Source: Fimicolochytrium jonesii
Lineage: Eukaryota
NCBI RefSeq assembly: GCF_025526975.1
Contig: NW_026515669.1
Span: 1,922,001 to 1,986,000 of the forward strand
Length of the DNA stretch: 64,000 nt
Direction of reading: 5' to 3'
A model generated the notes under the pieces. The model did no database searches. It was given only the letters and a program-made list of their open reading frames with translations, and was not told the origin of the DNA. A program made the position numbers and the translations under genes. This document shows, in pieces, positions 1,941 to 20,923 of this stretch. The number at the start of each line of letters is the position of its first letter. Positions within the stretch are counted from its first letter, which is position 1.

Positions 1941-3732
1941 GATTGTAGATGTATAGTACAGTAGTCGTAGTGGTTTAGATAATGAGTAGATGGAGCTTGG
2001 GAGCTATATATGAAGTTGCGACGAAGAAAGGTCGAGTCGTGGGATAGTTGGTGTGTTTGTGTTGCGAGATGAGGGAATTGGTGGAAAGACAGAGGCGCGT
2101 CGTGCTGGCCCGTAGTTTCTTATATACCGCGCCTGCAAGGAACTATGACGCTGCGGAAGGTGTAATCCTTGGCGAATCTGGCTACAGCTCTGATGATGAT
2201 GAGAATCGGATTGAGCAGCTCCTGAACTCGTGCGTGGTGGCGGGACAGAGAAGGAAGGCGCAAGTTCGAGGAAGAAAGGGACTCCGCGCGACAAAAAAGG
2301 GACAGATGACGTTGTGGCGATCCCCGTGCGAAAGAACACCCGCCTCCCTTTCACCCACACACCGTCAATCGCCCCATACAAAAAGCATATTCAGCCTCAC
2401 CCAGCCCAGCAGGACAGCCTGCGAACGAGGTTTACCGTCGATAACGGCTGTCATCAGACCCAAGGCAGAGAGCCCAGACCAAAAGAAGTGAATTAGTGAA
2501 GGTGACGCAATTCTGGTGAGGCTTTCGACATCCAGAGCGACAGAGGCAGATCGCCGGGCACAAAACGCTCGGCGGAACGTCCCATTTCCATACTATATAT
2601 ATATGGTCTGGACTCGCAGATGGACGCTCGATCTTCAAATTCATGAACCCGGGGGAGCCGATCTCTGCCTTCCCATCAGCGATCTCTTCAAAGAGCTAAT
2701 CGTCCATCGGCGATATACAGTAGGTGGCCAAAAGTCCGGCGACGGGTTCGCCAAGCCTTCGTGTGCAACCCAAAAGTCAACGACCAGGTGCCGTCAATTT
2801 GCGTACTTCTTCAGATGGGCAGGCAGGCCGGCGACTTCTGCTGGTGGCTATGCTGGGGATGATGTGTCCTTGTCGCGTCGTACCCGGACTTTTGGCCACC
2901 TACTGTAGCAGATGCCAGGGGACCCTCATCATTTCCCAACTCACACAAGCCTCATGTCTTGCCGACGACGGATGCAAAAAACGGGCCATGGTTGTGAACG
3001 TGGGGGAGGCAAACTCGTCGTCATTCCCGTTTGGTGGCGATGCTTTTCGGCATCTGCTGTGTGCGCAGCCTATTCGCGTGACATCATCTATCAGCAATTA
3101 CGCGCACGTGAACTGTCTGACAGCATCTCACCGAGACCTGTCAGTTCGGTGGAAAACATTCGACAGTTTTGCATTCCGGTTTCCCCTCGTCTTCAGCCCA
3201 CCGTGCCGATAGAATGAAAGGAAAGCAATCAAGCGATTCTGCAGCCACAATTGAAGAGTCTCTATGTTTCTGCATGCGTTGGGAGCCAGAGCGTCAGCGG
3301 TCAGCTAACAGTATGAAACCCTTCCTTTGTGGAAGTGTGGATTTTTGCGGCGGCTCATCTTATGGCGATTGTGGAAAAGGGTGGGGGCTGCGAGGGTAAA
3401 GACCTCGGCGCCGCAGGTACTACCAAATGTTCAAAGCAGGCAAACTGGACGAGCTTGTGGGACGTCTGAGAGGTGCGTCAAGGTGTATCATTGAGATGAT
3501 AGCTGTGTCTCCTGAGGAAGGATGTGAGGCGTGGTATGGAGGGATGTACGGATGTATGGATGTGCAGTTAGGCCTTATTCGAATTGTGGAGAGATCGAAA
3601 TACACCTCCATATGTGACAGACCACTCCCCTGGCACACCGTCTCCAGTTTCTATATGTCTTACATAATCTATGTCACAACAAAGTTCGTCCCTGCTACGT
3701 GATTCCAATCACGACACCTGAAGGCAGTAACC

Positions 3733-5424
3733 TTAAACCGCCGGCTCTCCTTCCCCACCCTCCACCCGCACCTTCCTCGCCTCCCTACAAAACTTATAAT
3801 GCTGAAACAACGCCCTGCTCTCAATAAAGCCCCTCACCTTCCCACTCCCTTTCCCATTCCCATCCGCGACACATAAAGGACACTGCATGTTCAATCCCAC
3901 AGCGGGTTTAAGCGTCTCGAGATGGAGCTGCATCCCCCAGGAACGCCGCACGACCGCTTGACCGCAGATGGGGCAGGGTGTGTAGTCGTAGTCTGCTGCG
4001 GGGGTTGTATCGATCGTATCTGCCGTTACCGCATCATCAGCAGGGGGATGCGGCAACATCTGTGAAGGCCGCGGATTCGGTTCCAAGTTCCCCACCTGCA
4101 CAGGCAACTCCTCCCTCCCAACCGTCGTATGTCTATTCACCCAATGCTGCCGTCTCGCATCCCCCGTCGCAAACAGCCTCTCGCACCCATCCTTCTCACA
4201 CTTATATTTCTTCGCCGCGTCTTTATCGGGTGACCAGTCCGCGCCGAATTTCTGGAGGGTGTGCACCATGTGGACGTGTTGGGTGTATCCGCGGGCTGTG
4301 TCGAGTTGTTTGAGGCAGTGTGGGCAGGTTAGGGAGGCGGGGATGAGGGCGAGGCGGCGTTGTTTGGCGGTGTGGCGGGAGGTGGGGGTTGTGGAGGCGG
4401 GGCTGCTGGGGGTTATGTCGAGGGTGGGTTTTGGGGGTTTGGGATGGGGACCGGTGGTCGTTCCGTTCGTTTGTGATGTCTCGGTGGGAGCTTCCAAACC
4501 GTCGTCTAGGCCAGGGACCAAGAGAGCATCCACGGAAGTCTCCTCCATCCCCTTCCACACGACCTTCCCCTCTCCCCATCCAAACCTGAACAACCGACTC
4601 TTCATCTCGCTATGGTGGTTCCGCCTCGTCAAGCCGTTCTTAAAACTCCCGCCGTGCTTGTTCCGCTTAACCACGTATCCCGGCCATAACCGCTCATCAA
4701 ACATCGCTACCTGGTTCAACCGCAATTCCGACCGAGCCGCCTGTGCCACGACATCCCAGCGCGTCTCCTGACCATCGACCAGCGACACACATACGGATGC
4801 AAGAGGATGTCTACGCAGCACGGACGCGACGGAATCGAAGAAATGCGCCATAAGGAACCGATGGAGCCGGAAATCCTCCGTTCCTAGATGCGGGTGATTC
4901 CAGATCACGCAATCGAATCCCTCTGCTTCCGCGAGCTGGTTCTCAAAGGCTTTGCTCAACTCCCAGGCGTTGACACCGTGGCGGACTTCGACCCCGCATA
5001 CGTTCCGGAGCCAGTCGCCTTGCAGTGATTCGAGGATTTCGCGGCTTTCGGGGTATTTGCCGAGGAGCTCTGTACGGTCGTCGAAGGAGGTTGAGGTGAT
5101 TAGGATGCGACGGCGGGGTTGTGGGGTTGTTGCTGCGGTGGAGGAAGGTAGGAGGCCGAGTAGGGCGAGAGGGATGCGGTTGTAAGGGAGGGAATGCACA
5201 TCCGAGTGAGGTTTCGAGTGCGAGTGGGATATGGCGCTGTGAGCGACCGGTTTGGGAAACAGCAGGCGGCATAAGGCGAGGGAGAAGGAGAAGTTGCCGT
5301 CTCCTAGAATGAGGACTCGGAAAGGCCGGTCGACGTCGGAGTGGAGGTCGGAGTGGAGGTCGGAGTCGAGGGTTGCCCCGCTGGGAGGCGGGACCACCGG
5401 CGGTTGTAAGTCGCTGACGTTCAT
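3733..5424 (-). CDS. DUF2431 (BMT5-like rRNA uridine-N3 methyltransferase domain) protein with C-terminal C2H2-type zinc fingers
   Basis: Intronless ORF. Motifs RVLILGDGNFSFSLAL, STSFD, HGVNA, FDCVIWNHPHLG and LMAHFFDS, then CPHC..HVHMVH, CEKDGC..HWVNRH, CPIC and CPLC. Likely start is M95 of the track ORF (5424). Confidence 0.8.
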   Translation of the reverse strand: MNVSDLQPPVVPPPSGATLDSDLHSDLHSDVDRPFRVLILGDGNFSFSLALCRLLFPKPVAHSAISHSHSKPHSDVHSLPYNRIPLALLGLLPSSTAATTPQPRRRILITSTSFDDRTELLGKYPESREILESLQGDWLRNVCGVEVRHGVNAWELSKAFENQLAEAEGFDCVIWNHPHLGTEDFRLHRFLMAHFFDSVASVLRRHPLASVCVSLVDGQETRWDVVAQAARSELRLNQVAMFDERLWPGYVVKRNKHGGSFKNGLTRRNHHSEMKSRLFRFGWGEGKVVWKGMEETSVDALLVPGLDDGLEAPTETSQTNGTTTGPHPKPPKPTLDITPSSPASTTPTSRHTAKQRRLALIPASLTCPHCLKQLDTARGYTQHVHMVHTLQKFGADWSPDKDAAKKYKCEKDGCERLFATGDARRQHWVNRHTTVGREELPVQVGNLEPNPRPSQMLPHPPADDAVTADTIDTTPAADYDYTPCPICGQAVVRRSWGMQLHLETLKPAVGLNMQCPLCVADGNGKGSGKVRGFIESRALFQHYKFCREARKVRVEGGEGEPAV

Positions 5425-6450: not shown

Positions 6451-7077
6451 TGATGGGACGCGAGATGGGGGCGACAGTCAGACGGGATGGAGAGGGAGAG
6501 GGAGAGAGTGCTGTGCGGGGAGCGGGGATCCATGGATTTGTCTTGTCGGAACACCCAGTGCGGGCTATCCGGAGGAAATCTATCTGGCATACTCATTCGA
6601 TGACCCTCAGCAAAACCCAGATAGAGATGGACTGGGGAAGTCTGCGAGGATTGGGCTTACTGGGTCTAAACGACAACTCCTGGATGGGGGGAAGACCATA
6701 CATGTATTTAACGTTTGCATACACATACCATATAGCTTCCTTTTGCGGAGAACACTTTGCTAGAAGTGTGTGAAGACCTTGGGGCTTCAGGGGCTTTATC
6801 CCCGTGGAGCGCGTCTGCAAGACAGCCAACAGACGGCTGCGCGCAGTGGCCAAGGAATTGGGAACATCGGATAACCGGATGAACAGTTCACAACCTCCTT
6901 CCCCACGAAGCACTGCTGGCACACATTCCCACGAGCCAACGCCGCAGACTCATAGGAGAGTGCTGTAGTAGTAGCAGAGAAAGGGTCTGCAGCTGCCGTG
7001 TTATTCCAAAAGTCGGTGCTTTCATACGCCTCAGCGCGATATAAAAAGCGGAGAGCGGTACCTCCAGGATCAAAGTC

Positions 7078-9867: not shown

Positions 9868-10976
9868 ATGGCCCGCAAACCCACCAAGGCCAAACGGCAA
9901 CCCATCACCACCCTCCTCCCCCGCCCCGCCCCCAGCATCACCAAACCCACCGCCTCCTCCTCCACCACAACCCGCCTCCGCTCCTCCCAAAAGCTCATTT
10001 CCACCTACCACACCCTCAACAAAAAGCTCTCAACACTCGTCAAACAGCACGACGAGCCCGCCGCCGCCGCCGTGCGTAGGGAGATGGAAGCAATGGGTGG
10101 ACTGCATGCGTATCAGAGGGCGAGTTTGGCGGGGAATGAGAAGAAGGGGATTGTGGCGAGTGAGAAATGGGTGTTGCCGTTTTTGAGGAAGGAGCGGACG
10201 AGGGTCCATGGTATTGCTCAGGCGGTGGAAGGAGAGGTTGATAAGGACGCGGACGATGCAACAGTGACGACGGGGACGAAAGCAAAAGAACCGACAACAA
10301 AACTGAAGATGTTGGACGTTGGAGCGGTGAACGGGCAAACGTATGCGAAACAGGCGTCGTGGATCGACGTGTCCAGGATCGATTTGAACCCGCAGGAGCC
10401 TGGGATTGAGAAGCAGGATTTCTTTGAGCGGTCGTTGCCGAAATCGGATGCGGAGCGGTTTCATGTGCTGTGTTTGAGTTTGGTGGTGAATTTTGTGGGG
10501 GATCCGAAGGCGAGAGGTATGTTATATGCTGCGTTGTTTGCATGGCATGCCACCTCCTATCATGCTGGGCGATGTGCTTGGTGTGCAACTAGTCGACCCA
10601 CCATTTTGCGTTCATCTTTCTAACGCCACTCATCCCCACCAACTGAATCTACATCCTACCCACAGGCGATATGCTCCTCAAAACCCTCCACTACCTCCTC
10701 CCCCACGGCCTCCTCTTCCTCGCCCTCCCTCTCCCCTGCCTCACCAACTCGCGCTACATGACCCATGAACACTTCACCGCCATCCTCACATCCATGGGCT
10801 ACGAGCTCGTCGACCATCATCATGCGCGCAAGCTTGCGTTCTACGTGTTTCGGAAAAGCGGGAATGGGAAGAAGGGCAAGGGAGGGAAGAAGATTGTGGA
10901 GTGGCCGAAGAGGGAGATGAGACCGGGTGGGAAACGGAATAACTTTTGTGTGGTTGTTAGGAGGGGTGGGGAGTGA
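9868..10976 (+). CDS. BMT2: 25S rRNA (adenine-N1) methyltransferase Bmt2
   Basis: Motifs ISTYHTLNK, MGGLHAYQRAS, LDVGA, IDLNPQ..IEKQDF and LSLVVNFV. An intron at 10517-10665 joins to LFLALPLPCLTNSRY...RNNFCVV. Confidence 0.92.
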
Positions 10977-11399: not shown

Positions 11400-12682
11400 A
11401 CCACCTGCCCGCATTCGGTACAGATGCTCTCACCCCGATCCAACGGTGAAGTCGCTTTTTCAAAGCATGCAAGACAGCATTCCTAGGAGCATATGCTCTT
11501 CCGCAGGCCTGTGTACGACTTTCGACTCTGACTTTGCATGATAGTTCAACTCATACTTCGAGAAGAGCGTTGCATGTACAGCAATGAGGATGAGGAGGGC
11601 GAATGCAGCATCACAGGGCCAGCTGCCCGTGTCATTCGAGCGTCTCCGCCTGGAAGGCAGTCGGGGAAGAAGGATGCGCTTGGTGCCGAATGGGAACTTC
11701 ATCCCTGTTGCCAATGGGATGATGAGGTTCGAATACAATGTCACAGCTCAGTGAGCTACCCGAACTATAATTGCTATTCCACAATAATCGTAGGTGTACT
11801 CATGATAGGTAGCGTGAATAGCAAACACGGGTAGCTAGCTCAATACAGAGCATCACACCTCCACTCTCGCGGAACATCATCTGGCCGGTAGAACAACACG
11901 AAGCCCAGGGTGTGATGTAAATATACCTGAAGCCAACACCACCATCATCGCTGCAACTGCTGCTGGTGGTGGTGGTGGTGCTGGTGGTGGTGGTGCTGGT
12001 GCTCTCCTTCTCGTTGGTGTCCAACTTCATTCGCCTGCAGTCTCTACAAGAATGTTTGGACATTTCGTCAGAACGAGCACATCCTCTCAACATGGTATGA
12101 AGCAGACACAACCACATGCGATTTCGTTCACATACCGGCTGGACTTCATCAAGATGCGTTCCCGTTGAGTGCTGGGATCGGAACCGACGCCATCAGCAAA
12201 GTTCTTGCACGCTCTCGTGTATCCTTGGTCGGTGTGGATTGCGACGTCTCGCGATCGATACTTGAATTCGCACGAGCGCCGATTGACAAGCTTCGTGAAT
12301 CGCAAAGGGGAGACCAGCCAACACCGGAGACGAGGCGGTAAACAGGTCCGCAGCCCGCGGTGAAGGTCGTCCCCTTGAGCTCGACCTATCATCTCCCCTG
12401 GAGACGCTGGGTCGATGGTAGAAAGGCGAATTGCCGGACTTGAGCGGCCGTGGTGGTGAGGAGGAGGGAGCTATCTGGCACAGATTGATGACAGAGTTAG
12501 CACCTTGTAGCCCTTCATGCCGCATAAACACACCATCGACTTACGGTTTCATTCCCGACCTGGTGAGGGGGCATCAATTGGTGAGAGAGTACATTGGATT
12601 GATGAGGTGCATTGGATGGTTGCGCGGATTGAACGAGTTCTTGGAAGTTCAGGGTCGCATCATTCCTCTCCCTCTGCGCCAT
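11400..12682 (-). other. Possible degenerate or hypothetical spliced gene
   Basis: ATG at 12682 (MAQRERND...) with a GTAAGT donor near 12545, followed by short broken ORFs. No recognisable domain. Confidence 0.2.
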
Positions 12683-12990: not shown

Positions 12991-15900
12991 CTACGCCGCC
13001 CACGAATCCCCCGCACCCCTCCTCCTCTCGTTCGGACTCAAACTCCTCTCCCTCGCTTTATGCACCCTCCCATTCCCGATCGGCGCGATAAGGAACGTGT
13101 CGGGAAAGAACCGCGGGTCGTGACGCGAGGTTGTGTCGACAGGTGCGGAGAGGGCAAGGGTGGACAGCGTAGCGGTGCAGGTGTCGAGGTCGTCGGTGTC
13201 GAGAGTGGTAGAAAGGGCGGTTGGGGGGTCCAGGTTGCCGGGGCCCGAATCAGATGGGTGGCATCTGTGTTTTTTTGGTGCTGATAGCTGGTGGCTATCC
13301 TCGGCGTCGGGTCTGCGGTTCTTGGAGTTTTGGTTGTCAGTGCAATGGAGTCGTTCAGTTCTCCAAGTTCTCCAAACGGCATTCACAAGCCTTACCATTT
13401 TCCGCTGAAAAAGAGGTAGTGTTGCAACCACACTCCGCTTCCCAAAAAGGTGGCGACCTCGCTCAGCTCTGTCCATCCACTGTGTTCGAGCAGCGACGGT
13501 GGCGTGCAGGAGGACCACGTCTTCCAGCTGTAGATTTGTAGGGCCGAAATCAGAAACCAGTTTGTTGAGTTTGCAAGTCATGATGCAATGACAATCACCT
13601 GCGTGTCGGAGCCCTGTTAGGGTCACTGATCCCAAAGGTGAGATATTCCAGCCGTAAAATGCCGTCTGTCTGGCAGATTTTGCGGACCGGGGGCAAATGA
13701 AATCCAGCCAACCATCCAGCGAGCAAAGCCCGTCGAATGCAACCTTTCATGCGTAATAGTACGCGTAGTTCAACATAATGAACTACTTCAGAGAGTCGGC
13801 TTTGCCTCGGAATGTATCTCCCCACGACAACGGGTTGATAGTCCTATCTGGAGCGCCGGCTTCCCCGTTCGCTTTCCGGCGGGATCGATAGTGTTCTAGC
13901 TCCTCCTCTTGTGTATATGGGTATCGATGGCATGCGAAGGGGTGGTTGAGTGCCGGTTGCAATGCATAGCGTCTCTGGGCTTCCGATGTTGTGATCCGCC
14001 GTTTCACCTCTCGCTCCGCGGCGTACTTGCGCTCGCGTTTGGGATCGGTGGTCCATCAATAAGCACAGCCAGATCAGTGCGGGATTCGAAGATGTTTGAC
14101 CTGCTCCATCTTGACTTCTCATTCCCTTGTAAACCTGTGGCGACGGCATCGGGGCCCCAGGACGAATAGACAATAGACCCGGTGGTTTTTGCACCACTTC
14201 GACGCCGGTTGTTGTAAAACTCAATCAGAGATTGCCGGGTCAGTGGGATGAGTGCACGTATGTTCACTTCGAAGACGTATCCGGGGTCTTGATGTGTCCG
14301 AAAGACGAGATTAAAGTTTCGCTTGTTGACTCCGACACTGCTTGGTCTGCAGTCACCATTTGCCATACATACGCGGTCCCGTGTAGCAGGTCCCAAGGCC
14401 GAACATGTCGCAAACCGAGCGGAGTCGATTTGAACATTGCGTTCTTTAAGGTCCCCTATGCGCGGTTTGGAAGCGGTAGTTAGTGTGCGGGCAACAACTT
14501 TGCCATCAGAGCGCAGTATTGAGCTTACCGTGGGCAACGTCCTCATATCCCTCATACAACTCTGGCAGGGTCACAGCATACAGGAGCAGATCGGATACCG
14601 GATGTCGTGGATTTCTTCATGGCGATTATCGACCCTTGTATGAGGTGGAGAACATCCAGTGGGGATCGACCATGAATGTCGGCCTTCTCCAGGAATCGCT
14701 TCGTCACTGGGACCTTCGTATTGGCAGTGTTCCATTGGTCCAATGGTATTGCGCTCGTAGCAGCAGCGTTCAACCTTGCTCCAGATTCAGCTGCAGCATT
14801 TTCATGCCTCCCCGTATCTACACCATTATCCACGCCACCTGCATCGCCCATATCCGCCGCTCCGCCCATATCCTCCTGGTGGTCCTGGTCTTCACCGTCC
14901 TCTGGATCATAGACGCTGATTGTATCCGCGTTCCTGTCACCCTCCTCCACACCGTCACCCTCTTCCACACTCATCGCAGTGGCCTCGGTGCTGGCCGCGC
15001 CGGTCTTCGTACTCGTGGGGAGGTGGTGGGGCTCCCCGCTCTTGGTCCGGATCAACCCGTACTCCCTACGTATGATACGACGTCCGGTCAGAACGGTACT
15101 CGGCGTCGTGGCAAAAGAGAGCAGGTATCGATACCACCCCATTATACCTATGACCGCAACTAGTATCAATTTCCCTCGTCCCATGCAACAACTGCGGCAA
15201 ACACGACCACAGCATGTTGTTCCGCAAGCGCAAAGCAATTCCATACTCCGAATACTCGAAGTAGCAGTCACTGTCAGCGGCGTCGACGCCTTCCTCCGAA
15301 GTGGCAAATGCGATGGCATGCTCGCTTTCGTCGGCGTCGGTGTGCGGTGGAGCAACATAATGGCGCCGATCATCGGAAACTCGCCCTTGAACTCGTATTC
15401 GAAGCGCATGCCCTCCGCCGCGATGAAGAGTCTTCCATTGGGAAGGAGATGCCAGTAGTGGCCACTCATACCAGTGCCGTTGGTGCTGGCCGTCCCGTCC
15501 TCCGGGTGCATGATGTCGCGGTTCGGCACCTTCAGTAGCTCTTGATGAGGTTGTATTCGCTACCAGTACACATCAACGTCCGTCAGACCAGAGAACGAGC
15601 ATTTGCGCCAAGCGGTAATATCCTACCGGCGGGGGGGCCTCGTACTCCCACCCATGCAGTCCAATGGGATGAACAGCCTCCCATATGGGAGAACCGGGAG
15701 AGATACAGAATCTGGCCAGAGATACAGAATCTGGCCTTCGCTTCGCTCAGTTGGCTTTTGGATACCGTACAGCTGGTACCAAATCCTATTGAGGCACTGC
15801 AGCACTCAGGAATCCAGCTCAAAAGGATTTGGTACCAGCTGTACGGCTATGCCGTGAGAACCGCCGAAAACTCGGCCACTGCCTGCTCGAATGACAGGCC

Positions 15901-16376: not shown

Positions 16377-17755
16377 ATGTTCTGGGACCTCAACGTCCCA
16401 TATGAGCCGCAGGCGGTCGCTAACACAGAGCTAAAGAAGACTATCGCCATACTGCACGAATGTAGGTACGTGCGGGTGTTCTCTTCGTAGGGAGTTTTCT
16501 TTGAAGGACCCTCATATTGCGGTTGAGATTCGGCCGAGGTGTGCAATAGTACATTTCCATGTTCCCTCATACACTCCGTCTGACGGCTTTCTTCTCGTTT
16601 AGTTGGGTATGGGGCAGTTGCATATAACGTGACCTACTCTGGGAAAGAGGCAACTTCCAAGGTATGCTTCGGGGAATGATGAAACGTCTACGGTGCAGGA
16701 CGTAGCTTATGGAGGTTGACCACTATTTCCCACTCCCCTCAGCCAAATCCGATAAAACCTCTGAAACTAAGCGAGATTGGCATCAAATCCGCCCAAACGA
16801 CGACCGGTCGCTCGTCCCTGCATCCTTTTATATCCGCAAATGTGGCAGCGTGGACGGATGGATTTCAGCAACTGTCTCGACTGACAGTCATTGCTGATGA
16901 TACGAGCGCGAATTACCAATTGGTAGGCAATCTGAGAGTTCAGATTGAGTAGCGGACCAGGATCTAATCATGTCCATCACAGACATCAGCAAACTCCAAC
17001 GCAGCGTCATATGATCTGATTGCAGTGCAACCGACAAACGAAAAGCTCTTCCAGTCAGCCTGCAGCCTGTTCGATGTGGATATTGTATCCCTGGACATGT
17101 CCAACCGCCTGCCATTTTTCATCAAAGGACCAACAGTAAATGGGGCATTACAGCGTGGGGTGTTTTTCGAAATCGCTTATGGGGCTGCTATTCGAGGTTA
17201 GTGATGGATGATGGATCTCGTGCATGACGTGGTTTGCCGTGACGTATCTTCCTGAGCACGGCCTTTGCCTCTTCCGCAGATGCAACGGCACGAAGGCATC
17301 TCATCAGCAATGCGGCGGCACTGGTCCGAGCGACGAAAGGCAAGAATATCCTGATCACGAGTGAGGCCCAAAAGGCAATGGAGATACGAGGACCTTACGA
17401 TGTGATAAATCTGTGAGTGATGCCAGATTCGATGCTTTTGATGAGGGAACTGATCAGTGACGTTGTTCACCCAGTGCGACCATTTTTGGAATGACTCGCG
17501 AACAAGCGAAAAATGCCTTGGACGCAAACTGTCGGGCTGTTGTGTTACATGCTGGTAAGAAGCACTTTCCTTTTGATACCGAGGACACTCTTGCAGAAAG
17601 CGGGATCAACAACTGATCTACTCTCCTTGTATCAAACAGCCACCCGACGTCAAACTCACCGCGGCATACTCAGCATGGAGTCTGCCGCATCGTTGAGTGC
17701 GGCGAGCACATGGAAGCTTGGGCAGGGTGAAGAGACCGAAGCTATGCAGGAGTAG
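16377..17755 (+). CDS. RPP1: RNase P/MRP subunit p30 (multi-exon)
   Basis: Starts MFWDLNVPY. Exons encode QLSRLTV, YDLIAVQPTNEKLFQSAC..DVDIVSLD..RLPF..RGVFFEIAY, RRHLISNA..LVRATKGKNILITSEA..RGPYDVIN and ATRRQTHRG. Confidence 0.92.
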
Positions 17756-19400: not shown

Positions 19401-19947
19401 TGCGAAGCTAGCGCGCACCGTCCATCTCAAGCCCCTGCAATGTACGCGCCCGAAAGCCAAGCGGCACAATGCTCGAATGCGACGATAACGCCTATCCAAC
19501 ATGGAGGATGAGACGTGGCGGAAGCACCGGTTTGCTTGTTGTTGTTGTTTTGGACATCGTGACGTACGATTTGATGGCGAGATCCTGTCCCGTTCTTGCA
19601 GGTAGAGTATGTCCCGATCCGACGTACATGCTTCGTGCTTTTGAAGAGCATGACCGGAATGCGGCCCAAAGGGCCTTTGCGATCTTCTTTGATTGGGCAG
19701 ACTTCTAACGCGTACGCTTTGACTTGGGGTCAGGCTTGGACCCAGACTTTGGTTTTGCAGCTGCAGTCAGGCTGCAGTCGTCTTTTGTTTGGGTGGCACA
19801 GTGCCCGTGGGTTGGCGTTTGCGTCGTTGTTTCTTTGGAGGAGGGAGCGGGGGTTCTTTGTCATGTACTGTAGCTCCAGACCCGGCAGCGTCCGTCCAGA
19901 CGGTTCTCGACTTTCAAGTCCACTGCACAAAGCATAAGTACAGTAAA

Positions 19948-20923
19948 ATGGCCACCGCCCTACCCGCGCACCTGCTGCTTCGCTCGCATCTTGCGGCAGG
20001 TGGCCTCCGTCTCTCGCCATGATTTACTCAACTGCCTCCGGGTATGCAGAGCCTGGAACTCCGCACTCCCCGCGCAAGAACGGTGTCTCATCAAGTACGA
20101 CTTCGAAGAACTCGATGGCATTGGGTGCGGACGTGTCTTCAACAACGCCGCGAGTCTCCACATCCAGGCGCTGGATACCAACGCTTACAGCATTTGGGAC
20201 GGCCCGAACATCGCCTACCTGACCTCCGAGTTTGGATTCCTTTCGACCATGCAATCCGAATTCCTTTCGACCATGCAATCCGACCTGCGTGGCATTGACA
20301 GTGATAAGATGCGCAGATATCATCCGAATGCGCCAAAGGATATGTCTCAATGGTCGGCCTTGAGCGCTGATCTCGCGTTCCTCGCTGGGCCGCTCCAAGT
20401 CATCGGCTCGGAATATACCGAGCTAGATGGGACCGAGCACATTGACCGCAGCACGGGATATAACGGAGAGATGGCATTCCCATTGCTATTATCAGCTGTC
20501 CCTGAGTTGGACGACCCATCCGACGCGGTAGCCTGCAACGCTCTTCTCGCTCGGCTGCAGGTTTCAGAACACCTTCGCGGATACTACGGAATCAGAAGGA
20601 TCTCGTTAGCAGATGAAGACGCGGTCATGGCGTTTCTCGTCAGGCTGTTCGAATGGGATAGACGATTCTTCCGCGGGTGGTTCAGTCTCGAAAACGATGC
20701 GCAAAGACAGACCTTAATGAGACTGCATCAGGCGCTGAAAGACGACAATATTGTCGAGCTGATCGATGTAGATCGTCCAGAAGCGACTTATTACGACGTT
20801 GGTCGCGGCGGATGGGATGGGAATTTTTGTTTCTTTGTCTTGTGCAGGAGGGGAACGACGGGCCGGAATGTGGTGGGGTGGATGATGTTCCAGAATTTGC
20901 ATGATTATGAGACTTTTCATTGA
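19948..20923 (+). pseudogene. F-box protein with a +1 frameshift near the 5' end (pseudogene or sequence error)
   Basis: ATG 19948 (MATALPAHLLL) is out of frame with ..RILRQVASVSRHDLLNCLRVCRAWN. Removing one base at ~19979 restores an F-box motif. Intronless, with a 24-bp tandem duplication at 20236-20283. Confidence 0.7.

Follow-up and report, generated by a model that had tools for sequence, protein, structure and literature searches.

What is encoded by a long stop-free reading frame of the chytrid Fimicolochytrium jonesii that no catalogued protein contains in frame? The question is raised by positions 15066..15572, on the minus strand, of a 64-kb stretch of contig NW_026515669.1 (hereafter the window, always taken at its full length; G+C 55%), where a first-pass annotation had seen a decayed TET/JBP-like 2-oxoglutarate (2OG)-Fe(II) dioxygenase, possibly carried as cargo by a mobile element. 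According to the analysis reported here, the conserved core of this frame is very probably the C-terminal, iron-binding part of a member of a small family with a predicted TET/JBP fold, present in Geranomyces and in AT-rich metagenomes, the window copy itself being a likely dead pseudogene.

A conserved core and its relatives

The frame, announced as about 170 codons devoid of stops and of an early start, was recovered with exactly the peptide quoted for it. Designated frame B and present in the open reading frame (ORF) listing, it consists of 168 codons and a TAG at 15068-15066 (15066..15572, minus strand), and its first methionine does not come before the NNMLW stretch. Homology is confined to its lower part: the homologous core (15126..15362, minus strand; HYVAPPHTD...RYNGVVS) would represent the C-terminal strands of a double-stranded beta-helix and corresponds to positions 220-302 of the 313-position family profile. 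Core residues are numbered along the 98-residue translation of 15069-15362 (minus strand).

When the core was compared by phmmer with 1.84 billion representative proteins, 11 matches were obtained at E <= 0.001. Eight of them (P0002-P0007, P0009 and P0011) are family members, aligned in a single stretch over the core at 36-46% identity; the other three (P0001, P0008 and P0010), repeat proteins matching in five or six short stretches, were set aside. Searched back against the window by tblastn, all eight relatives matched only 15087-15398 on the minus strand (E 1e-12 to 3e-9), every other match of these proteins in the 64 kb having E >= 0.24. A profile search with the relatives' alignment collected 15 proteins among 5.8 billion, none with a Pfam domain on record, and a hidden Markov model (HMM) of 313 positions, built from the 17 sequences of alignment A2, scored the frame-B core at 66.0-73.2 bits (E 1e-22 to 1e-24). 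Since this score and the reciprocal tblastn matches lie far beyond chance, the core is, or was, real coding sequence.

As for the composition of the family, the members known by name are four hypothetical proteins encoded by two chytrids, Geranomyces variabilis and G. michiganensis, the others being unnamed. A scan of metagenome contigs provided 37 further loci encoding relatives, 36 of them at 17-27% G+C and one (L027) at 40%; these copies are mutually diverged, with 36-99% identity to the protein of locus L001. The relatives measure 298-345 residues, and only their residues 174-335, i.e. the last third, match the window. In an unrooted FastTree phylogeny of about 80 core columns (17 sequences, P0009 being dropped as too short), the window copy stands beside three Geranomyces proteins and P0011 (support 0.96), on a long branch (0.94).

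The nearest named sequences are therefore found in Geranomyces: KAJ3183836.1 (P0005) and P0024 in G. variabilis, KAJ3145737.1 (P0002) and P0018 in G. michiganensis, of which P0005 and P0002 share 39-41% identity with the window core by tblastn. These proteins have in common with the window the FPM...Y.A..H.D...PEYG...W.W...HGT...RY pattern, the fungal order and the tree clade. They differ from it in their length (299-442 residues), in an N-terminal region of about 250 residues that is absent from the window and, for P0005 and P0002, in reading HVAD where the window reads HTD; they are uncharacterised. Two members look degenerate: P0024 (442 residues) tracks its paralogue P0005 up to FPED and then wholly diverges, losing HGT and RY, and P0025 has HVN for HxD and YST for HGT.

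The three catalytic motifs were found where the first-pass annotation had placed them. Based on the alignment, HxD (H7-T-D9, His-Thr-Asp; 15336..15344, minus strand) is predicted to provide Fe(II) ligands, and the distal His of a His-Gly-Thr motif (H60; 15177..15185, minus strand, His codon 15185-15183), 53 residues after H7, the third one. Twelve residues further, the Arg of Arg-Tyr (R72; 15147..15149, minus strand) is a predicted 2OG contact, a role read from its position alone. Homologues conserving these residues do exist: in the 17-relative alignment, H7 is present in all 16 sequences with a residue at that column and the Asp in 13 of the 16 (the exceptions being P0005 and P0002 with HVAD, and P0025 with HVN), while H60 is a His in 16 of 17 and R72 is conserved in all 17. 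Over the core as a whole, the window keeps 19 of the 28 columns that at least 85% of the relatives conserve, and two residues invariant in the 17 relatives are substituted (Pro38 by Ser and Trp54 by Cys). The HxD...H triad, being common to the whole 2OG superfamily, is necessary but not TET-specific.

Concerning the raw frames of the window, Pfam gave no match at E <= 10 for frame B and only IucA_IucC (E 0.094) for frame A, the adjacent frame described below. No second copy was found within the 64-kb window, tblastn of both frames having matched only themselves.

Predicted fold of the family

P0005, an intact relative of 345 residues, was modelled by AlphaFold with alignment A2 (mean predicted local distance difference test score, pLDDT, 70.4; predicted template modelling score, pTM, 0.63). 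In a Foldseek search of the Protein Data Bank (PDB) with this model, TET entries occupied ranks 1-24, with CcTet at 4.0e-8, CMD1 at 7.2e-8, TET2 at 9.9e-7 and NgTET at 2.4e-6; the first non-TET rows were SpoC, NMAD-1, FTO and AlkB, at 2.3e-5 to 1.6e-4. With VIA-align, TET-family entries held ranks 1-16: TET2 had a Z of 15.3 (246 residues aligned, 4.5 Å), CMD1 15.0, NgTET1 14.6 and CcTet 13.3, vs. 12.5 for AlkB (178 aligned). Structurally, the model comes closest to solved TET/JBP enzymes (CcTet 7w5p, 7vpn and 8jkk; CMD1 7cy4-8; human TET2 4nm6 and 7ne3; NgTET1 4lt5 and 5cg9), which display HxD, distal His and Arg in the same order as the window, at 8-15% sequence identity. Compared with them, the window covers about the last third of the fold only.

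At the sequence level, PF20515 (2OG-FeII_Oxy_6, Tet-like) and PF12851 (Tet_JBP) are the sole Pfam families matched more than once by family members. Among sub-threshold matches at E <= 0.01, PF20515 was found in 5 and PF12851 in 1 of the 17 members of A2, next to one unrelated DUF found once; for 35 metagenome ORFs the figures were 8 and 3, respectively, with two unrelated families found once each. These matches span the HxD-to-His part and, in L001, reach over profile positions 26-208 of 211. In a protein atlas, the nearest entries were Basidiomycota hypotheticals (0.96), followed by PF20515 (0.90) and Tet_JBP (0.88). On modelling and profile matches, the family is thus predicted to be a TET/JBP-like offshoot, and a distant one, among the 2OG oxygenases. 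The first-pass annotation had proposed looking for a Tet_JBP or 2OG profile and for a double-stranded beta-helix in the translated frame: both appeared in the relatives, as recurrent PF20515 and PF12851 matches and as a model nearest to TETs, the window frames themselves having no Tet match in Pfam (for the window fragment folded alone, see below).

Frame change and undetected N-terminal part

The first-pass annotation had also placed the upstream part of the protein (YWHLLPNG...EFPMIG) in the adjacent frame, implying a frameshift, a claim which is borne out here, more weakly than that of the core. This frame, designated frame A, is open for 335 codons (14552..15559, minus strand), including 79 stop-free codons across the core. 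Its upstream piece (15365..15559, minus strand; RIQPHQ...EFKGEFPMIG), likely to represent former helices and the first core strand, is bounded at its upstream end by a TAG (15562-15560), one more frame-A stop lying within 15563-15676. The change of frame falls at 15363..15364 (minus strand): the frame-A piece ends with a Gly codon (15367-15365) and frame B takes over with a His codon (15362-15360), reading HYVAPPHTDADESEH from a point just 3' of the frame-A GHYWHLLPNGRLFIAAEGMRFEYEFKGEFPMIG. As only two bases separate the Gly and His codons, an intron is excluded at this position; the two-base gap would fit the loss of a single base.

Three kinds of observations assign the upstream piece to frame A. 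Firstly, the closest relatives read G-[DN]-[FY]-P-M-[FI]-V about ten residues ahead of HxD, where frame A of the window has K-G-E-F-P-M-I-G; of the 127,996 positions in the six translated frames of the window, only 3 carry the motif [FY]PM[FIVL], 15379 (minus strand) among them. Secondly, Smith-Waterman alignment of the piece is colinear with residues 198-254 of P0005 and 212-242 of P0018 and abuts the core, with scores equalled by 11 and 9 of 300 shuffles, respectively. Thirdly, the G+C counts at the three codon positions are 39/26/48 of 65 (p 4e-4), real genes of the window having second-position (GC2) values of 0.39-0.51 and third-position (GC3) values of 0.63-0.77 in seven of the eight measured, and 0.45 and 0.47 in the short p30 exon. 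The core read in frame A has the wrong phase (36/49/42 of 79), and in a sliding plot the periodicity keeps the phase of frame A between about 15675 and 15376, takes that of frame B over 15375-15076 and returns to that of frame A between 15150 and about 14850. Reading through the frame change with an X brought no gain with the family HMM (73.1 vs. 73.2 bits).

The N-terminal 200-250 residues of the family were sought in all frames of 14.0-17.5 kb with the family HMM and with one built from Geranomyces sequences only; neither matched anything there but the core. When all stop-free fragments of 15.56-16.65 kb were compared with five N-termini by Smith-Waterman alignment, the best match had a z of 2.9 and was non-colinear; a 'TVLF' match to P0024 (z 2.7) and P0005 (z 2.0) was not above the noise and was discarded. 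The window piece, frame A and core together, is equivalent to about residues 198-333 of the 345 of P0005. Solved TETs align to P0005 over about residues 64-337, starting at 64-85, and the missing part therefore belongs to the fold: a complete catalytic domain, with its N-terminal strands and helices, was not recognised in the window copy.

The ancestral gene would then have encoded an Fe(II)/2OG oxygenase acting on a methylated DNA base, either 5-methylcytosine (5mC) or N6-methyladenine (6mA), the latter as reported for CcTet. One base may have been lost at 15363-15364, and the N-terminal part may have been lost or have decayed beyond recognition. The locus would now yield no active enzyme, because the solved TET folds extend, on P0005, over residues 73-336, of which only about 198-333 have a counterpart in the window. 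The decayed TET/JBP-like dioxygenase of the first-pass annotation is in this respect upheld, given the predicted fold of the relatives, their recurrent sub-threshold Tet matches, the frameshift and the undetected N-terminal two thirds.

Several points weigh against this reading. All three predicted catalytic motifs are retained and the 168-codon frame is stop-free, so that the decay of the core itself is slight at most. The fold evidence derives from P0005, whose identity to the window core is about 40%; the 98-residue core of the window, folded alone with the alignment, had a pLDDT of 58.6 and a pTM of 0.42, and its best Foldseek match an E of 0.13, values that say little in the case of a fragment. 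In the Pfam searches the gathering score was never reached (best 24.1 bits for a cut-off of 34.9, and 23.8 for a cut-off of 27), and the family profile had no match by sequence in the PDB, where only chance rows at E >= 0.79 were returned; it is for this reason, structural matches to TETs yet none by sequence, that the family is placed as a distant branch. The G+C periodicity of the core is in phase with frame B but not significant (p 0.12). With the family HMM, the upstream piece scores -3 bits in frame A, so that its assignment to that frame depends on motif and composition and on an alignment that is itself weak. In addition, the frameshift is known from one assembly and may be an assembly error. 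Finally, the N-terminal half of the family is poorly conserved in A2, so that upstream exons encoding a strongly diverged N-terminus could have been missed.

Surroundings and possible transposon carriage

The relic is located in a 5.7-kb stretch between two genes of the plus strand. On one side, a gene for the Bmt2 rRNA methyltransferase (9868..10973), identified by Pfam and by protein match, has two exons (9868-10518 and 10665-10973) that are 100% identical to an F. jonesii (Spizellomycetales) protein, followed by proteins of Powellomyces (58%) and Geranomyces (52-53%). On the other side, a Pfam match revealed an exon of a gene for the RNase P subunit p30 (16968..17198).

Was the dioxygenase brought there by a transposon? 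The first-pass annotation had suggested cargo of a mobile element spanning about 12.7-16 kb, with Kyakuja-Dileera-Zisupton (KDZ) or Plavaka transposons as the usual carriers. A remnant of the cargo of a TET-carrying DNA transposon, hAT-like or KDZ/Plavaka, inserted between Bmt2 and p30 and subsequently decayed, would be compatible with the pseudogene reading and bears on its origin alone; for the window copy, such an origin is possible but rather unlikely.

One argument for it comes from L001, a metagenome contig of 6872 bp at about 25% G+C. An intact family member (1989-2951, plus strand) is separated there by about 500 bp from a hAT transposase of convergent orientation (3466-5424, minus strand) with Dimer_Tnp_hAT (1.2e-23), hAT RNase-H fold (2.7e-9) and zf-BED (3.1e-5) domains, and inverted arrays of a 12-mer are present at 94-175 and 6698-6872. 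The whole has the appearance of an almost complete element of hAT type, whose termini, with the target-site duplication if there is one, fall at the limits of the contig or outside it. The arrangement can be likened to the transposon-borne fungal TETs, including some on hAT elements, that one report describes in Basidiomycota and Pezizomycetes (PMC12730594). A weak hAT match was found in L032 (7e-5), and the mutual divergence of the 37 metagenome copies also agrees with mobility. The hAT signal is however limited to 2 of the 37 loci, most contigs, at 1-3 kb, being too short to tell; transposases were sought in 41 ORFs of at least 100 residues from the 16 longest of these loci, and only that of L001 was found there. 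Transposon carriage is real for part of the family, with a hAT transposase in place of the KDZ/Plavaka carrier put forward at first.

In the window, 123 ORFs were scanned with Pfam (in sets of 9, 64 and 50), comprising those of at least 38 residues in 11.0-16.7 kb and of at least 70 residues in 10.6-19.9 kb, plus a few larger ones nearby, for a total span of about 9.8-20.9 kb. No transposase family, whether KDZ, Plavaka, hAT or other, was detected there; apart from a few chance rows, scores were obtained only for the two flanking genes and for an F-box-like ORF. That 11.0-16.7 kb contain no recognisable gene besides the relic would suit an inserted element, but 11-19 kb show no long or terminal inverted repeats around the relic (distant pairs do not exceed 22 nt, at 77%), the window contains no second copy, and the L001 transposase has a best tblastn match of E 0.70 in the window, with nothing in Pfam at that place. 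Scans of 10.5-18 kb showed no Rfam family, no tRNA and no relevant tandem repeats. Moreover, the Geranomyces genomes possess only two family proteins each, so that the family is not expanded there, and the window copy groups with Geranomyces and not with the AT-rich clade of the L001 relatives. For the window copy, placed in the tree beside low-copy Geranomyces genes, transposon carriage is unsupported, and with it the element proposed at 12.7-16 kb.

Some small features were recorded close to the relic. In the tail of frame A, the segment 14597-14746 (minus strand; PLDQWNTANTKVP.VTKRFLEKA) shows 31% identity, in a 52-residue alignment, with the hAT dimerisation domain of the L001 transposase (tblastn E 0.70; nothing in Pfam). 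About 400 bp upstream of the relic, 15765-15846 form a near-perfect palindrome with 29-nt arms, 97% complementary, and a 24-nt loop, beside which a 19-mer is duplicated exactly in tandem (15699-15736); both sequences are unique within the window.

Coding status of the locus

Could the gene still be alive, the frameshift being an assembly error or being spliced around, and a short or N-terminally divergent dioxygenase be made? The intact HxD, His and Arg, the openness of frame B over 168 codons and of frame A over 335, and the existence of a public gene model at the locus would agree with this, as would two possible introns. The first, an 86-nt GT...AG interval (15471-15386), would link frame A to frame B; the second, a candidate read from the sequence at 15062..15134 (minus strand, 73 nt; GTATCG...CTGAC...GAG, with a branch-like CTGAC), would restore frame A after the core, the alternative there being a second frameshift. 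The 86-nt interval was however rejected, since it would delete the FPM strand, with its motif so rare in the window, together with the stretch of frame A that carries the strongest coding signature (GC3 48/65 vs. GC2 26/65). A product read through the frame change would begin at the equivalent of about residue 198 of 345, without the strands and helices to which TETs align from about residue 73; frame A contains in-frame stops upstream, at 15562-15560 and within 15563-15676; and the public model does not include the core in frame and has no homologue. A live dioxygenase is accordingly very unlikely, and a dead copy is the preferred reading.

The public model in question (P0149, 'uncharacterized protein' of F. 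jonesii, 435 residues; 12994..15511, minus strand) is made of exons at about 15511-15247, 15147-14582, about 13539-13396 and 13320-12994. It begins at the ATG at 15511, crosses the core in frame A, continues in an acidic tail and ends with two exons at 13.5-13.0 kb. Its 99-nt 'intron' (15148..15246, minus strand; GTATGG...CATAG) removes a segment where frame B reads YGIALRL...HGT...CGH, including the distal His. No protein with the core in frame was found in the collections searched, in which the F. jonesii proteome was included; the relic is therefore unannotated, masked by an orphan model.

That the annotated frame-A gene is real, as an orphan protein overprinting or re-using dead dioxygenase sequence, is most improbable. 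In its favour are the 335-codon open frame, with its stop-free passage across the core, the model itself, and the first 69 codons (14852-15058) of the acidic tail (14555..15058, minus strand), which have a coding-like codon-position G+C (p 0.002). Neither the last 99 codons of the tail nor the ORF at 14007-14570 has any such periodicity, however, and the core in frame A is in the wrong phase. Searches with frame A recovered P0149 itself as the sole match, without a homologue of any part of it among proteins of 184-587 residues; the tail likewise has no homologue, and neither the model nor the tail has a Pfam domain. The model moreover requires an intron through sequence that is conserved in the other frame. 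P0149 would seem to be an artefact of gene prediction at the site of a pseudogene.

One more stretch of the region was also considered. At about 13.38 kb, NAVWRTWRTERLHCTD (13322-13387, minus strand, in ORF 12994-13746) resembles N.IW.W....HGT and was tried as a second relic; it was rejected, with -0.3 bits for the family HMM and nothing in Pfam. In the protein atlas (recognition 1401) its best likeness was 0.86, to unrelated clusters, and the resemblance is probably due to chance.

Finally, membership of the family in another nucleic-acid group of 2OG oxygenases (AlkB/FTO/NMAD-1-like) is very unlikely: AlkB, ALKBH3, FTO and NMAD-1 do have matches to the model of P0005 (Z of 10.9-12.5; Foldseek E of 3e-5 to 2e-4) and the HxD...H...R core is common to all 2OG oxygenases, but TETs fill the VIA-align ranks 1-16, with about 70 more residues aligned and a Z higher by 0.8 to 2.8, as well as the Foldseek ranks 1-24, and among the sub-threshold Pfam matches those to the two Tet families recur, whereas 2OG-FeII_Oxy_2 and the other AlkB models are absent.

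Literature context

No description of a chytrid TET-like family was found in the literature searched. Fungal TET expansions were reportedly first described by Iyer and colleagues, an account that may bear on whether chytrid TETs have already been described. The text passages of PMC4738411 state no chytrid TET, the phyletic figure of that paper lying outside this scope. Kojima 2025 (PMC12730594) distinguishes transposon-borne fungal TET/JBP of PU, AG and PE types, including TET-carrying hAT7 elements in rusts; the taxa concerned are Pucciniomycetes, Agaricomycetes and Pezizomycetes, a word search of its text having shown no mention of chytrids, and the PE type has HxE where the window family has HxD. 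A 2026 review (PMC13297926) likewise places transposon-borne TETs in Basidiomycota and Pezizomycetes.

Early-diverging fungi make heavy use of 6mA and are poor in 5mC. According to the same review, CcTet is the only biochemically characterised fungal TET and is active on both 6mA and 5mC, its Gly331 and Asp337 being assigned to the recognition of 6mA (PMC13297926). Given a 6mA-rich setting and an enzyme of this fold that oxidises 6mA, the intact relatives are reasonable candidates for 6mA erasers. A broader proposal, which is doubtful and is put forward tentatively, is that a TET/JBP lineage of early-diverging fungi, so far undescribed, is resident in Geranomyces and hAT-borne in AT-rich fungi, and has been lost in one chytrid, where the relic is its trace; this lineage would erase 6mA, as CcTet does in vitro, rather than 5mC.

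The relic itself is an ordinary pseudogene, and the family is of greater interest than this copy, whose direct importance is small because it is a dead fragment. What it provides is, on the one hand, a case of a public 435-residue orphan model that appears built over a pseudogene in the wrong frame and, on the other hand, a lead to a small family of Chytridiomycota, unannotated and predicted to have the TET fold; in the literature searched, fungal TET/JBP genes are described for Basidiomycota and Pezizomycetes only. As at least one member resides in what looks like a hAT-type element, the link between TETs and fungal transposons would extend to another lineage.

Other features of the window

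Two further features were noted at a distance from the relic. A TGG/TGC triplet array of 12.7 copies is present at 11958-12001, in a stretch with no other assignment, its minus strand reading as a Thr/Ser run, and an open frame of 349 codons at 19874-20923 (plus strand) shows a weak likeness to an F-box (E 0.0014) that does not reach the cut-off.

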